A stretch of 22,496 nt of DNA, from IMG/VR virus record IMGVR_UViG_3300000301_000103; one strand, 5' to 3'. Below, piece by piece: positions 6,707-21,500 of this stretch. The notes beneath the pieces are model-generated. The model ran no database searches. It was not told where the DNA came from and was given only the letters and a program-made list of their open reading frames with translations. Origin of the DNA: a virus. Taxonomy: Duplodnaviria > Heunggongvirae > Uroviricota > Caudoviricetes. The position numbers were made by a program, and so were the translations under genes. How positions within the stretch are numbered: position 1 is the first letter of the stretch; every line of letters starts with the position of its first letter.

Positions 6707-9437
6707 ATGGCAAAAGGAAAATCCGCACTGGCACTTGCTCTGAAAAAGAAAATCGGTAGCAACGACGAAATTCAGAAAGTAACTCATTGGATTGACACAG
6801 GCTTTCCTCCGTTAAACAAAGCTATTTCCGGTCGTTACGATGGCGGTTTCCCATGTGGTCGTATCGTAGAAGTATTCGGGCCACCAAGCGCGGGGAAATG
6901 TGTTACCGCAGACACCATGCTGCTGACGGAGCGTGGAATGGTAACAGTGAAAGAGTTGTTTGAGATTGAAGGGTACAAAGCGACATGCACTACTCGCGAT
7001 GTAGAGCATAACGTTGGACTCATCAATGAAAATGGCGTGATAGAGAAGACCTCACACCTGACATGGAACAACCGTCGCAAATTCAAGCGTATTAAGCTGG
7101 CATCAGGCGGTTATATCGAGGCTACGTTCCGTCACCCAATCCGTGTGGTTGACGACTTAGGTAATGTCGTCTGGCGACATGCTGAAAAAATCAGTGTAGG
7201 CGACACGATTCCTTCAATGGTTGGCACACATCAATTCGGCGATCAGCACCTGGATGCCAATATCGCAAAACTGATGGGCTATTTAATTGCTGACGGATAC
7301 GTGGCCTCTGAAAATTCAGTGAATTTTTCTAACACAGATCCTTTCATCAAGGATGAGTACTACCGCCTCATTTCGCTGGTATCAGACAAGATGCCAGTTG
7401 CGAGAAAACATAACGGCTCGGAAGACCATGTGCTGTTTAGCAAAGAGGTGCGTTCGCTGCTTTTTAAAGAATATGGTCTGGAGTATGAGAAAGCTGCTGG
7501 CAAGCAGGTTCCGTTGAGTGTGCGTCGCGCCAATAGCGAGGCTCAAATTGCATTCCTTCGCGGCTACTTTGAGCTGGAATGCCACGTCAATGATGGTCGC
7601 TGCATTGAGGTTGTGAGCGCGAGTGGGCTGCTGCTACAGCAAATTCGCCTCATGCTCCTGAATCTGGGGATTACGTCAACTATCTCTGAAAAACACGTCG
7701 CGGGTTATGAAAATACATATTACCGGCTGTCATTCAGTGGCTCTAATTACGACCTTTTTCTGTCAACGATTGGTTTCGAATCTCCGGCACGTTTATCAGT
7801 GGCAACCAAACGGGACATTGGTTTTGACCGCACTTACTCAGGCTATGTTCCGCACATCAGCGGCTTAGTGAAATCACTCNNNNNNNNNNNNNNNNNNNNN
7901 NNNNNNNNNNNNNNNNNNNNNNNNNNNNNNNNNNNNNNNNNNNNNNNNNNNNNNNNNNNNNNNNNNNNNNNNNNCACCCGTGAAGACTACGCTCTGGTAG
8001 ACCACGTTATTGGCCGCGGCGATCGTGTCGGAATAGACAAACTGCGAGAAATCTATGTCTCCTTCATTGGCAGAAAGAATCGTTTTAACGAGCATCTGTT
8101 TGCACAACTGGCAGCGGTAATTGGCTCTAACTTGTTCTACGACGAAGTCGTGGCTATTGAGGAAGGTGAAGCACCAACGTTCGACGTAGCGATGCCGGAA
8201 ACACACTCNNNNNNNNNNNNNNNNNNNNNNNNNNNNNNNNNNNNNNNNNNNNNNNNNNNNNNNNNNNNNNNNNNNNNNNNNNNNNNNNNNNNNNNNNNNN
8301 NNNNNNNNGCCACAACACATTCCTTGCAACAGCAGCGATGATCTCCGCTCAAAAACAAGATGGTCTGGCGGTATTCCTCGATCATGAAAACAGTTTTGAC
8401 GTTGGCCTGGCTGCAGCCAATGGCCTGAACGCAGATGAGGATGACGGTCAGTGGGTATACAAGCANNNNNNNNNNNNNNNNNNNNNNNNNNNNNNNNNNN
8501 NNNNNNNNNNNNNNNNNNNNNNNNNNNNNNNNNNNNNNNNNNNNNNNNNNNNNNNNNNNNNNNNNNNNNNNNNNNNNNNNNNNNNNNNNNNNNNNNNNNN
8601 NNNNNNNNNNNNNNNNNNNNNNNNNNNNNNNNNNNNNNNNATCGTGGCTGACTCTCTTGCGTCTATGGTTCCGAACTCCAAAGCCGAGAAGTTCGAAAAG
8701 ATGGCTGAAGGCACAGCCAAAGACAAAGATCAGCTAAACATGAACGACAATACGGCACTGGCTCGTGCGACGAGNNNNNNNNNNNNNNNNNNNNNNNNNN
8801 NNNNNNNNNNNNNNNNNNNNNNNNNNNNNNNNNNNNNNNNNNNNNNNNNNNNNNNNNNNNNNNNNNNNNNNNNNNNNNNNNNNNNCACGCAAATACAACG
8901 CCTGCATCATCTTCTTGAATCAGGTTCGCACAAAAATCGGTGTAATGTTTGGCGACCCTACTACGTCGCCAGGTGGAGATTCACCGAAGTTCTACGCTTC
9001 TGTACGTATCCGTCTTGGTGCATCGGTGATGAAGGATGGTAAAGAGAAGATCGGCCAGGACGTAGGCGCAGAATGCATCAAAAACAAAGTTGCACCACCG
9101 TATGGCAAATGCACCTGGAAATTCTACTTCGATCCTACTCGTGGCCTCGACGTTATCGAGTCGCTCGTCGAGTACATGCTGGAAGAAGGATACCTGCCAA
9201 AGAACGCCAGCGGTCGAGTAGAAATTGGTGACAAGAAATACACCAAATCACAAATCGTCGAGATGTATCGGGAGAAGCCACNNNNNNNNNNNNNNNNNNN
9301 NNNNNNNNNNNNNNNNNNNNNNNNNNNNNNNNNNNNNNNNNNNNNNNNNNNNNNNNNNNNNNNNNNNNNNNGCGGCTTTACAGGCAATCGACGACCGGAG
9401 ATCAAAAGACAATCCCACCGAGTCAGTAGAAGAGTAA
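6707..9437 (+). CDS. recA: RecA-family recombinase interrupted by an intein
   Basis: ATG preceded by AAAGGAG. Walker A GPPSAGK is followed directly by an intein; C-extein has IIFLNQVRTKIGVMFGDPTTSPGGDSPKFYASVRIRL, the RecA core signature. Four N-runs lie inside the gene and frames shift across three; stop TAA 9435-9437. Confidence 0.8.
6899..8316 (+). other. Intein with LAGLIDADG homing-endonuclease domain, inserted in the RecA P-loop
   Basis: Starts with Cys right after GPPSAGK (CVTADTMLL, block A); TxxH block B (EATFRHP); LAGLIDADG-like LMGYLIADGY and IAFLRGYFELE; block F-like TFDVAMPETH; ends HN followed by Thr (cac aac aca at 8311-8319). N-runs 7880-7974 and 8209-8308 lie inside. Confidence 0.7.
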
Positions 9438-9441
9438 ACAC

Positions 9442-9468
9442 AAGGCGTCCACAGGACGCCTTTTTTAT
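9442..9468 (+). terminator. Rho-independent terminator (AAGGCGTCC-ACA-GGACGCCTT + TTTTAT)
   Basis: 9-bp perfect stem and T-run 5 nt after the recA stop. Confidence 0.7.
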
Positions 9469-9480
9469 CTCTTGAAAATA

Positions 9481-9500
9481 TATAAGTGCTTACTTATCAT
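9481..9500 (+). promoter_or_regulatory. Recurrent imperfect palindrome site 3 (ATAAGT-GCTT-ACTTAT); also fits TTGAAA-17 nt-TATCAT
   Basis: Inverted hexamers ATAAGT/ACTTAT; TTGAAA at 9472-9477 and TATCAT at 9495-9500 are spaced 17 nt. Confidence 0.45.
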
Positions 9501-9529: not shown

Positions 9530-9730
9530 ATGATCAAAATCTATCTATTGGCAGTAGCCACAGGCCTTTCAGTGGCTCTCATCTACGGATTACTGGTTCC
9601 GTCGCTGATTTCTGCAAAGAGTGATTTGGCCGTCATGCTTGGAGTTCTCGTTGGTTTTGGCGCTCCAGTAATCGGTCTTATTGGTGGTCGTAAGTTTATT
9701 AACTCATTAATCAAAGCAAAGGGGAAATAA
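9530..9730 (+). CDS. Small membrane protein (66 aa, two predicted transmembrane helices)
   Basis: ATG preceded by AGGAAAACAC; almost entirely hydrophobic with a short basic tail; stop is 3 nt before the SPFH gene start. Confidence 0.6.
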   Translation: MIKIYLLAVATGLSVALIYGLLVPSLISAKSDLAVMLGVLVGFGAPVIGLIGGRKFINSLIKAKGK

Positions 9731-9733
9731 GTA

Positions 9734-10643
9734 ATGAAGAAAGGTTTACTTGCAGTTGCTCTGGCGGCTATTTGCACAATGGGTCTTACTGGCTGTGATC
9801 GCGTGGAGCCTGGATACGTTGGCATCAAAGTAAACAAATTAGGTGAAGACAAAGGGATTGGTGAAGTGGTTGGCGTTGGTCGCCAATGGACAGGTCTTAA
9901 CACCGAACTTTACGTATTCCCGACCTTCAAACAAATGAAGACCTACGACGAGCCGTTCACATTCCAGATGAGTGACGGTACTGCTATTGGTCACAAAATT
10001 GGCGTTGCGTATCTGGTTAATCGTGACAAGGTAACTACGGTGTTCCAGACCTATCGCAAAGGCGTAGACGATATCACCGNNNNNNNNNNNNNNNNNNNNN
10101 NNNNNNNNNNNNNNNNNNNNNNNNNNNNNNNNNNNNNNNNNNNNNNNCGATATCACCGAATCAGATCTGCGTCAGAAAATTGCCGACTCTCTAAACCGTT
10201 TGGCCAGCCGTATGACCACTGACTCATTTATCGACGGTGGTAAGGCACAATTGCTGGACAACGCACTGAAAGATATTCAGAAAGAGATGTCTCCGGTTGG
10301 TATTGAGGTACTGAGCCTGTCATGGGTTGGAAAGCCTGATTACCCAAAAACTGTCATTGAATCTATTAACGCCAAAGTAACGGCTAACCAGCGTACTCTG
10401 CAACGTCAGCAGGAAGTTGAACAACGTAAAGCTGAGGCGAATATGCTACGTGAACAGGCTAATGGTGAAGCTGATGCTATCCGTGCTCGTGCGCAAGCAG
10501 AAGCAGACGCCATTCGTCTGCGCGGTGAAGCTCTGCGTCAAAACCCGAACGTTATGGAACTGGAAGCCATCAATAAATGGAATGGCCAGTTACCGCAGTA
10601 CATGACTCAAGGGGCTAACACTCCTTTCATTACAGTGAAATAA
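9734..10643 (+). CDS. SPFH/Band 7 (prohibitin/HflC-like) domain lipoprotein
   Basis: Signal peptide with lipobox LTGC; Band-7-like core and Ala/Glu/Arg-rich coiled-coil tail (AEANMLREQANGEADAIRARAQAEADAIRLRGEAL). N-run 10080-10147 interrupts it and is flanked by identical 10-mers GATATCACCG. Confidence 0.7.
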
Positions 10644-10659: not shown

Positions 10660-10688
10660 AGGCGTCCAGTTGGACGCCTTTTTTATCG
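10660..10688 (+). terminator. Rho-independent terminator (AGGCGTCC-AGTT-GGACGCCT + TTTTTTATC)
   Basis: 8-bp perfect stem and T6 run 17 nt after the SPFH stop; same stem sequence as the terminator at 9442. Confidence 0.7.
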
Positions 10689-10734: not shown

Positions 10735-11238
10735 ATGACAGCTATTAAGAAACTCTACGATGCCGCAAACGTGGCTCTGGATGTTATTGATGATGAAGTA
10801 GCAAAAGGCTTTCCTGAACCTGATTGGGCGCATCAGCTACGAAACGCTATCGCAGAAATGACCCCACCAGATCCAACCCCCGACGAGACAGACTGGCAGC
10901 GATTCATCCGTATGTACGCTCAGGAAATAGGTCCAACGCCAACGGCAGAGCAGGCAATGCTGCTGAAATACTTCAAAGAGGCGGGAGAGGATTTACCAAT
11001 TGATGACTCAGCATATTGGTTCCACNNNNNNNNNNNNNNNNNNNNNNNNNNNNNNNNNNNNNNNNNNNNNNNNNNNNNNNNNNNNNNNNNNNNNNNNNNN
11101 NNNNNNNNNNNNNGTAAGTATGACGTGATATTCACACAAGGCATGGGAAGCAAAGATATGGTTGTGTGGCATCTACTCCATATAGACACAGCCGTTGACA
11201 GAGTTATTGAACAGTTTTTCCCTAAACAAGAAGATTGA
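10735..11238 (+). CDS. Hypothetical protein (about 167 aa; N-run 11026-11113 inside)
   Basis: ATG preceded by AAAGGATAAGAAAAC; protein-like composition on both sides of the gap in the same frame. Confidence 0.55.
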   Translation: MTAIKKLYDAANVALDVIDDEVAKGFPEPDWAHQLRNAIAEMTPPDPTPDETDWQRFIRMYAQEIGPTPTAEQAMLLKYFKEAGEDLPIDDSAYWFHXXXXXXXXXXXXXXXXXXXXXXXXXXXXXXKYDVIFTQGMGSKDMVVWHLLHIDTAVDRVIEQFFPKQED

Positions 11239-11293: not shown

Positions 11294-11569
11294 ATGAGAG
11301 TTTTAGTTCGAATCGTTACCAGCACTGTCTATGACGTGTTTCCACTTTTTATGATCAAAGTCGATGGCCTTAACGACGAAGAAACTGACGCGCTGATCCA
11401 GCGTACTCTTGTTGAATATACAGGTCATGACGCTGATTCAGTGATGGTTGATGATGATGGTGTTTGTTGGCATAACGGCAACTGTTGGTACGTAGAAGAG
11501 ACTCAACAAATCAGTGATGAAGATGCCGCACATCTTGAGCGTATTTTAAGCATCAGCACTTTTGAGTGA
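11294..11569 (+). CDS. Hypothetical acidic protein (91 aa)
   Basis: ATG preceded by the conserved AAAAGGAAAAACAC leader; no recognisable motifs. Confidence 0.55.
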   Translation: MRVLVRIVTSTVYDVFPLFMIKVDGLNDEETDALIQRTLVEYTGHDADSVMVDDDGVCWHNGNCWYVEETQQISDEDAAHLERILSISTFE

Positions 11570-11587: not shown

Positions 11588-11609
11588 ATAAGTTAGTATC
11601 TACCTATCA
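11588..11609 (+). promoter_or_regulatory. Recurrent imperfect palindrome site 4 (ATAAGTTAGTATCTACCTATCA)
   Basis: Same motif family, in the intergenic region after the 11569 stop. Confidence 0.4.
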
Positions 11610-11788
11610 TGAAGATTTTTATTGAATACTTGTTACTCATCGTTTCAATAGCTTTTGTCATCGACTGCATTTTCACCGGTGTCATTCGTAAAGTCTTTTC
11701 CCCGGTGAACGACGTAGTCATAAACGCTTTGGCTATCGTGCTCGTATTTAATTCAGCATTTGATGTAATCAAAGAGGTGGCAGCATGA
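11609..11788 (+). CDS. Possible small hydrophobic membrane protein (59 aa)
   Basis: ORF MKIFIEYLLLIVSIAFVIDCIF..., stop overlaps the next ATG (ATGA); no Shine-Dalgarno and the start sits inside the palindrome motif, so it may not be translated. Confidence 0.25.
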   Translation: MKIFIEYLLLIVSIAFVIDCIFTGVIRKVFSPVNDVVINALAIVLVFNSAFDVIKEVAA

Positions 11789-12120
11789 AGGCCATCCCAT
11801 TCGCTCTGTTGTTCCTTTCCTCGATCGTTGTGGCCGACACCACTGTTTATCAGTGTGAAATGTCTGTAGCCGACGTTAAGAATGGCGCTCTTACCGACGT
11901 CATAAAAGCACCATATGGAGCGATGGTCGTAGACAGCGGCGACCAGTTCTATGTTGTGCGTGACGATCGAGTGTTGTCATCCCCATATCTCACAAATCGT
12001 AATGGCAAATTAACCGGCGTCGGAGAAGACCACTTCGTATACAACAAATACAAGGGCTTCTATGGCGTTCACGCTTCTCAGCAAAGCTACCTTTTCGATG
12101 ACTGCAAGGAGGTTGGATAA
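11785..12120 (+). CDS. Secreted or periplasmic hypothetical protein (111 aa) with N-terminal signal peptide
   Basis: ATG preceded by AGAGGTGG; signal-peptide-like N-terminus MKAIPFALLFLSSIVVA. Confidence 0.6.
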   Translation: MKAIPFALLFLSSIVVADTTVYQCEMSVADVKNGALTDVIKAPYGAMVVDSGDQFYVVRDDRVLSSPYLTNRNGKLTGVGEDHFVYNKYKGFYGVHASQQSYLFDDCKEVG

Positions 12121-21477: not shown

Positions 21478-21500
21478 GATAGGTAAGTGCTTATCTATTA
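21478..21500 (+). promoter_or_regulatory. Recurrent imperfect palindrome site 6 (GATAGGTAAG-TG-CTTATCTATTA)
   Basis: Same motif family, between the ruvC-like stop and the nrdA start. Confidence 0.4.

Follow-up and report, generated by a model that had tools for sequence, protein, structure and literature searches.

What is the role of a gene pair in which a small hydrophobic protein precedes an SPFH/Band-7 lipoprotein on a mobile element of Escherichia coli? We addressed this question for positions 9530–10643 of the virus record IMGVR_UViG_3300000301_000103 (Caudoviricetes; 22,496 nucleotides (nt), hereafter the window). The window was assigned to an SSU5-like phage-plasmid of E. coli near phages CMS-2020a and Cyrano, in agreement with an earlier sequence-only reading that had placed the pair on a mobile element. 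DNA identity of the region was 97% with Escherichia phage CMS-2020a and 88–98% with Cyrano, an SSU5-like phage-plasmid carried by E. coli LF82, and the nearest complete record was an E. coli plasmid of 100 kb with 99.7% identity. We propose that the locus is a cassette of this phage-plasmid encoding an obligate pair of an SPFH lipoprotein and a two-helix protein, which would form a ring at the inner membrane, fence a membrane patch during phage development, and thereby insulate the membrane; we consider the chances for and against this proposal to be about equal.

The larger gene encodes a cage-type SPFH lipoprotein

The larger gene (9734–10643, + strand) is interrupted by an assembly gap, which splits it into 9734–10079 and, in another frame, 10159–10643. 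The run of N at 10080–10147 was the sole run in the window flanked by a duplicate, the 11-nt CGATATCACCG, which indicates that two contig ends overlap. The artefact as a whole (10080–10158) consists of 68 N and the second copy of this duplicate, and the relatives are contiguous there. Taking out the 68 N and 11 nt restored the frame and yielded a 276-amino-acid protein that was 100% identical to CYRAN_57 of Cyrano (annotated as 276 amino acids) and to the CMS-2020a protein. This result excludes both a frameshift and hidden sequence at this run, and the resequencing that the sequence-only reading had called for is not needed, since the frame is restored and the product is identical to that of the relatives.

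The repaired protein was examined using Pfam, PHROG, AlphaFold, and Foldseek. It matched Pfam Band_7 (PF01145) at residues 23–209 (E = 2.6e-30; 106.2 bits against a gathering cutoff of 23.6) and PHROG 200, annotated as "lipoprotein" (E = 3e-108). Its N-terminus comprises MKK, a hydrophobic stretch, and the lipobox LTGC with Cys21, followed by Asp22 at position +2 and then R23. Cys21 was invariant in 8 of 8 diverse homologues, and a lipobox, defined as [LVI][ASTVI][GAS]C at the end of the signal peptide, was found in 114 of 142 full-length representatives. From this lipobox the SPFH protein is predicted to be lipidated. The first SPFH strand begins only 3–4 residues after Cys21, so that the SPFH domain must sit on the membrane. 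Across the family, the residue at +2 was S (26), T (26), D (13), G (13), or E (8); Asp, the signal for inner-membrane retention in E. coli, typifies the enterobacterial clade that includes the window, not the whole family.

The AlphaFold model of a 99%-identical protein (P0034) had a mean predicted local distance difference test score of 77, with 80–95 in the core. It showed an SPFH core (SPFH1/2) followed by a 65-residue helix (179–243), which corresponds to the Ala/Glu/Arg-rich tail. Over the full length, Foldseek matched chains of prohibitin, HflK/C, erlin, stomatin, flotillin, and QmcA (8z5g) from cage structures, with E values of 1e-14 to 1e-7. The C-terminal segment NP..ELEAINKWNG.LP aligned with the motif NP..L..I at the C-terminus of prohibitin-2, and its K, W, G, and P were invariant in eight diverse homologues. 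A profile search to widen the structure alignment returned mostly the same matches, with identities of 67% or more. These results showed that the lipoprotein has the full cage-type SPFH architecture, in which a core is followed by a long helix of the coiled-coil type and by a C-terminal segment resembling that of prohibitin. The sequence-only reading had already recognised the SPFH core, the coiled-coil tail, and the lipoprotein signal, and all three were borne out here. Homologues carry the public labels "serine protease", "transposase (fusion protein)", "HflK", and "lipoprotein"; the first two were unsupported by profile searches of the window's SPFH protein.

These matches also bear on a different explanation, in which the phage protein mimics HflK/C by replacing or joining the host cage and altering proteolysis by FtsH, for example by stabilising phage regulators or by changing the turnover of LpxC or SecY. 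HflK was the closest solved relative by sequence (E = 0.007), HflK and HflC ranked first by sequence both among solved structures and among NCBIfam models, and the top fold matches, prohibitin and HflK/C, are extracytoplasmic SPFH proteins associated with AAA proteases. The topology, with an N-terminal anchor and the SPFH domain outside the cytoplasm, is the same, and similar speculation has appeared in several genome papers. However, the identity with HflK/C was only 16–17%, and the NCBIfam equivalog scores lay far below the cutoffs (30.2 vs 134.4 bits for HflC, TIGR01932; 18.7 vs 159.4 bits for HflK, TIGR01933). Moreover, the phage has a single SPFH gene and no K/C pair, its conserved partner is a private protein with two transmembrane helices unrelated to FtsH, and strictly virulent phages, in which no decision for lysogeny is taken, commonly carry the module. 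On balance, such mimicry appears unlikely.

The upstream gene encodes a small two-helix protein

The gene at 9530–9730 (+) was assigned to a two-helix inner-membrane protein by its PHROG 1130 match, hydrophobicity, conservation, and selection. Its 66-amino-acid product, MIKIYLLAVATGLSVALIYGLLVPSLISAKSDLAVMLGVLVGFGAPVIGLIGGRKFINSLIKAKGK, has two hydrophobic helices and a basic tail, and matched PHROG 1130, annotated as "membrane protein" (E = 5e-25). It had no match in Pfam, NCBIfam, or PADLOC; the sole Pfam hit at E ≤ 1 was DUF1427 (E = 0.76). Thus, the open reading frame (ORF) and helices described by the sequence-only reading, with the SPFH gene 3 nt further on, were confirmed, while the NfeD-like partner that it had suggested was not found, the profile search giving no NfeD/OB-fold domain, for which a protein of 66 amino acids would be too short.

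A word-indexed protein search with the small protein reached only close relatives in E. coli and Shigella; hence, a home-made hidden Markov model (HMM) was used on fetched loci. A conserved motif, LLVPSLISAKSD (P-x-L-I-S), was located at the end of helix 1. The Pro and Ser of this motif were conserved in 100% of sequences, the Gly opening helix 2 (G38) in 98%, and the Pro inside helix 2 in 81%. The mean number of Lys and Arg residues was 1.8 in the N-terminus, 0.8 in the loop, and 4.4 in the tail. By the positive-inside rule, these counts predict that both termini face the cytoplasm (N-in/C-in), and the motif would then lie at the periplasmic leaflet, at the end of helix 1.

The ratio omega was 0.13–0.3 for the small ORF and 0.01–0.04 for the SPFH gene. 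The small gene is therefore under purifying selection, which indicates that it is a real gene, yet it is 5–10 times less constrained than the SPFH gene; positive selection on the small protein was not seen in this range of omega. When compared with its counterpart in Cyrano (locus L001, 6105–6305), the small ORF (9530–9730) showed 73% amino acid identity and a synonymous divergence (dS) of 0.72. The adjoining SPFH gene encodes an identical protein in the two elements, with dS of 0.03 or less. A recombinational allele swap limited to the 200-nt small ORF explains this divergence from Cyrano.

The two genes are paired and sometimes fused across a wide range of phages

The stop codon of the small gene ends at 9730 and the ATG of the SPFH gene is at 9734, leaving a spacing of 3 nt, and the ribosome-binding site AAGGGG lies inside the 3′ end of the small ORF. 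The surroundings of SPFH homologues were retrieved for 210 loci, and clustering at 85% identity reduced these to 43 clusters. A homologue of the small protein was encoded upstream on the same strand in 33 of the 43 clusters according to the HMM; the count rose to 36 when hydrophobic ORFs with the motif were added, and to 37 with one ORF read by eye. Usually, the small gene overlapped the SPFH start by 1–20 nt or was 3 nt apart. Among the 1125 neighbouring ORFs of these clusters, the small gene was the only recurrent family, and no third conserved gene was identified. The pairing was kept down to about 40% SPFH identity. Furthermore, about 18 of the 150 best distant representatives were single polypeptides in which the two-helix domain is joined by a linker to an internal signal peptide bearing a lipobox, followed by the SPFH domain; one fusion has the reverse domain order. 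These results showed that translation of the two genes is coupled, that they are inherited together over a very broad range of phages, and that they are fused in some cases, a tighter coupling than the sequence-only reading could know. In combination with the synteny, such fusions of the "Rosetta stone" type strongly indicate that the two proteins function jointly and are inserted side by side.

The neighbourhood also bears on whether the pair is a lysis-timing device, with the small protein acting like a holin or antiholin that is restrained or timed by the periplasmic SPFH lipoprotein. The small protein does have the format of a class II holin (about 65 amino acids, two helices, N-in/C-in, and a basic tail), and the coiled coil of the lipoprotein weakly matched an Rz-like spanin (E = 0.11). 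However, no endolysin, holin, or spanin neighbour occurred in any of the 43 clusters, and Cyrano has a separate block of holin, endolysin, and Rz/Rz1 (CYRAN_22–25). In addition, conservation falls on prolines at the helix ends and on a serine of the loop, with no pore-lining pattern. A role in lysis timing is thus very unlikely.

The SPFH protein was detected by tblastn in 413 records of both temperate and virulent phages. The temperate carriers included SSU5-like and some P1-like phage-plasmids, the P2-like phage P88, phiP27, and Stx-converting lambdoid phages, and the virulent carriers included N4-like phages, Vequintavirinae, Ounavirinae, Bruynoghevirus, phiCbK, and jumbo, Lak, and crAss-like phages. 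When 1.84 billion representatives were searched exhaustively, 192 clusters were retrieved at E ≤ 1e-30, and their number rose to 896 at E ≤ 1e-10. In P88 the pair lies within the repressed early operon, and in virulent phages it lies among early or DNA-metabolism genes. The module was present in 290 of 5426 complete E. coli genomes (about 5%).

As membrane proteins on a mobile element, the two proteins could also form an anti-phage defence or abortive-infection system on the plasmid, as the sequence-only reading had considered. At E ≤ 1, the two proteins matched no family of PADLOC-DB 2.0, many strictly virulent phages carry the module, and the pair is silent in a lysogen grown in LB (described below); defence is accordingly an explanation to which we give hardly any credence.

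One further candidate was rejected as a functional lead. In the Vi01-like phage PhiSH19, an SPFH gene stands beside a gene annotated as "superinfection exclusion protein". The PhiSH19 lipoprotein lacks the C-terminal motif of the PHROG 200 family, and the protein encoded beside it is soluble and acidic and was not matched by the HMM of the small partner.

The pair forms a removable cassette with its own promoter

The pair is bracketed by two intrinsic terminators on the + strand. The upstream one (9442–9469) ends the recA-like unit and consists of the stem AAGGCGTCC / GGACGCCTT with the loop ACA, followed by a T-run. The downstream one (10660–10688) has the same stem, AGGCGTCCA / TGGACGCCT, plus TTTTTTATC. 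The hairpins (9442–9462 and 10660–10679), each followed by a T-run, have the stem GGCGTCC/GGACGCC in common, as the sequence-only reading had noticed. They represent the left and right copies of a direct repeat of about 27 nt around the cassette, sharing stem and tail. The region contained seven terminator-like sites where 1.1 would be expected, and the stem showed compensatory and wobble changes in relatives.

Between the upstream terminator and the small gene, a sigma-70-type promoter-like site (9472–9500, +) was identified, with TTGAAA (9472–9477), a 17-nt spacer, and TATCAT (9495–9500), matching the consensus at 10 of 12 positions. A perfect palindrome, ATAAGT-GCTT-ACTTAT (ATAAGTGCTTACTTAT; 9482–9497), overlaps the spacer and the −10 hexamer and is a candidate operator. 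This promoter/palindrome block was nearly invariant in 27 distinct upstream variants with diverging flanks. When up to two mismatches were allowed in ATAAGT-N4-ACTTAT, the window contained six sites where 0.69 would be expected by chance, each lying just upstream of a gene or unit: 3530 (UvsY-like gene), 3995 (gp32-like single-stranded DNA-binding protein (SSB) gene), 9482 (the SPFH pair), 11261 (ORF at 11294), 16482 (SbcD-like gene), and 21479 (site near 21498). The six palindromes are possibly the operator set of one phage regulator.

An empty site was identified in pCUPF07B (NZ_CP182176; locus L212, 3000–3130), which has a single terminator, that of recA. There, the sequence that lies beyond the second terminator in the window follows the recA terminator directly, and the next gene is a DUF7238 gene, homologous to 10735–11238 of the window. 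Because the empty site joins these two sequences, we concluded that the cassette consists of the promoter, the two genes, and the second terminator copy, and that it is autonomous and removable. Among 203 complete E. coli genomes with the junction, 8 were empty and about 195 were filled; the replicon can do without the pair, which is nevertheless strongly retained. The cassette resembles a moron in having a promoter and terminator of its own and in its variable presence in genomes that are collinear otherwise.

The orthologous pair of Cyrano is induced in macrophages

The expression of the pair was examined in the relative Cyrano, not in the window's element, using the published values given as log2(fpkm+5) for Cyrano genes in supplementary S1 Table of PMC9928086. 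CYRAN_56, the small protein, showed 2.32 and 2.32 (no reads) in LB at the stationary phase, about 3–5 in DMEM, and 7.6 and 7.7 in macrophages at 6 h (PMC9928086). The corresponding values of CYRAN_57, the SPFH lipoprotein, were 4.3 and 3.0, about 3–5, and 7.25 and 7.4 (PMC9928086). The flanking recA and CYRAN_58 reached 4.0–4.2 in macrophages at 6 h (PMC9928086). The pair was therefore induced about 12–40-fold in macrophages relative to LB, and its neighbours were not induced. The pair is also absent from the 13 Cyrano morons defined by transcription in LB (PMC9928086). Since it is near-silent in LB and absent from this list, the pair is an autonomous, regulated unit and not a constitutive gene for lysogenic conversion. 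The silence in LB likewise argues against a constitutively expressed prophage exclusion gene. The capsid and tail genes of Cyrano also rise in macrophages (PMC9928086), so that partial derepression of the prophage is possible.

These data, along with the cassette structure, are relevant to the explanation that the pair is a moron of benefit to the host, expressed from the phage-plasmid under envelope or intracellular stress and raising membrane-stress tolerance or virulence. The own promoter and terminators, the presence/absence polymorphism, and the induction of the Cyrano pair but not its neighbours in macrophages at 6 h are all in its favour. In addition, a prophage-encoded protein of Pasteurella described as HflK/C-like is reported to be a virulence factor that is released in vesicles (PMC9872710), and host SPFH proteins are reported to aid stress tolerance (PMC10434171). 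In contrast, the pair is at background in LB and outside the 13 Cyrano morons, its neighbours in virulent phages are early or DNA-metabolism genes, P88 carries it in an early operon that is repressed, and other Cyrano genes, including capsid and tail, also rise in macrophages. A benefit to the host seems improbable.

Separately from the pair, CYRAN_60–62 form a second condition-induced unit beside it. These genes, which correspond to 11609–12120 (+) of the window and the downstream Cra-like gene, encode a small membrane protein, a second protein whose N-terminus resembles a signal peptide, and Cra; their expression changed from no reads in LB to log2 values of 8.3–9.0 in macrophages.

Proposed role in phage development

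Here, we propose a model of the pair by combining the above results. After Sec export and lipidation of Cys21, the lipoprotein would stay in the inner membrane because of Asp at +2. It may multimerise into a ring or cage similar to that of HflK/C or prohibitin on the periplasmic face. The small protein would be its integral-membrane partner, giving transmembrane helices to a scaffold that is without them, and would contact the scaffold via the invariant P-x-L-I-S at the periplasmic end of helix 1. The complex could then fence a patch of the inner membrane during phage development. In the most speculative step, the membrane would be insulated or stabilised, either by blocking the entry of a superinfecting genome or by keeping the membrane energised until programmed lysis. 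Imm and Sp of phage T4 block the genome entry of superinfecting phages early in infection. Membrane insulation or superinfection exclusion in phage development is our leading guess; of the roles raised by the sequence-only reading, superinfection exclusion and membrane remodelling are both possible. A role in phage development, and in the lytic cycle rather than in lysogeny, is suggested because the pair is common in virulent phages, occupies early or DNA-metabolism positions including the early operon of P88, and is silent in the resting lysogen.

A more specific form of this model, which we regard as possible but doubtful, is that the pair represents a new type of phage membrane device that is very widespread. 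The viral SPFH cage, built on the periplasmic face around its private two-helix partner, would enclose or block the site or host channel used by entering phage DNA, as a form of superinfection exclusion that acts early, or would shield the membrane from depolarising attacks. In that case the fast-evolving, recombining small protein would set the specificity of the cage.

Several points weigh against the proposal of a membrane-fencing pair. The role of the family was called unclear in papers up to June 2026 (PMC8540360, PMC13239085), no functional study of the SPFH-pair family was found in the literature searched, and we infer the oligomerization, membrane location, and contact of the two proteins. 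Asp at +2 is only enterobacterial; outside this clade the residue is S, T, G, or E, which by E. coli rules means outer-membrane sorting, and fusion proteins could be cleaved and sorted onward. The C-terminal 30 residues had low confidence in the AlphaFold monomer model, although poor modelling would be expected if folding of this segment needs the oligomer. The induction in macrophages fits host benefit and partial derepression equally well. Finally, the evidence does not separate exclusion from membrane stabilisation.

Organization of the surrounding element

The gene order of the window was the same as in Cyrano and SSU5: HicAB, UvsY, the gp32-like SSB, an exonuclease, a long RecA-like gene, the pair, hypothetical genes, Cra, and RepA. 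The RecA-like gene (6707–9437, +) is very long; its Cyrano counterpart has 779 amino acids, and RefSeq labels it in relatives as a LAGLIDADG homing endonuclease. This suggests that an intein or homing endonuclease sits inside the RecA-like recombinase.

There were 19 runs of N in the window. Six of them were comparable with relatives (Cyrano), and each was 75–82 nt longer than the real sequence: 100 vs 23 nt at 8209–8308, 175 vs 94 nt at 8466–8640, 111 vs 29 nt at 8775–8885, 90 vs 15 nt at 9282–9371, 68 vs −11 nt at 10080–10147, and 88 vs 10 nt at 11026–11113. The runs are scaffold gaps of over-estimated size with no hidden sequence. Since their lengths are overestimated, reading frames across the gaps are meaningless.

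Comparison with known systems

SPFH scaffolds such as prohibitin, stomatin, flotillin, and HflK/C form closed cages, and what they enclose and why are debated. The phage version is minimal, with one lipid-anchored subunit and a partner of 60–70 amino acids, sometimes in one fused chain. As a compact, non-essential, and easily expressed pair, it offers a model for how an SPFH cage recognizes a membrane client, and it may represent a step, so far unrecognised, by which phages take over the host or protect its envelope. Phages under consideration for therapeutic use also carry the module, repeatedly under the wrong label "serine protease" or "transposase", so that correct annotation is of practical value.

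The two proteins are clear members of PHROG 200 and PHROG 1130, which are sequence clusters to which no function is assigned and in which the pairing, fusions, and cassette are not recorded. In the literature searched, we found no description of an SPFH protein of this kind obligately paired with a two-helix partner unlike NfeD, of fusions between the two, of a lipid anchor that places the protein in the periplasm, or of the organization as a cassette. Among cellular systems, the NfeD–SPFH operons (YbbJ–QmcA and YqiJ–YqiK of E. coli, and archaeal STOPP–stomatin) resemble the pair in having a membrane-protein gene directly upstream of the SPFH gene and in the cage-type SPFH architecture, QmcA being among the full-length fold matches. 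QmcA is cytoplasmic with a transmembrane anchor. In contrast, the phage SPFH protein is predicted to be lipid-anchored and periplasmic, its partner has 66 amino acids and no NfeD/OB-fold (PF01957) domain, and the pair is phage-borne. HflK/HflC–FtsH and mitochondrial prohibitin PHB1/2 gave the best sequence and fold matches and share the N-terminal anchor and the SPFH domain on the non-cytoplasmic side. However, they are heterodimeric pairs, whereas the phage has one gene, and a lipid anchor replaces the transmembrane helix; the identity was only 14–17%, the phage protein scored below the equivalog cutoffs, and no link to a protease is known.

T4 Imm and Sp, T5 Llp, phi80 Cor, and TP-J34 Ltp are small envelope proteins that phages make early and that stop the entry of a second phage; among them are a small protein of the inner membrane and a component that is a lipoprotein or a membrane-anchored periplasmic protein. 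The likeness of the pair to these exclusion factors is functional and hypothetical; they have no sequence or fold relation to it, and none is an SPFH protein. Small membrane proteins also take part in the function of the YdjGH–YdjI operon of Bacillus subtilis, a system on the cytoplasmic face in a Gram-positive bacterium. Its SPFH protein, YdjI, is reported to act at the membrane with the phage-shock protein PspA in envelope-stress surveillance (PMC8581546). Taken together, these comparisons place the phage pair, whose sequence families are already in the databases, as a variant of the known theme of an SPFH protein with a membrane partner.

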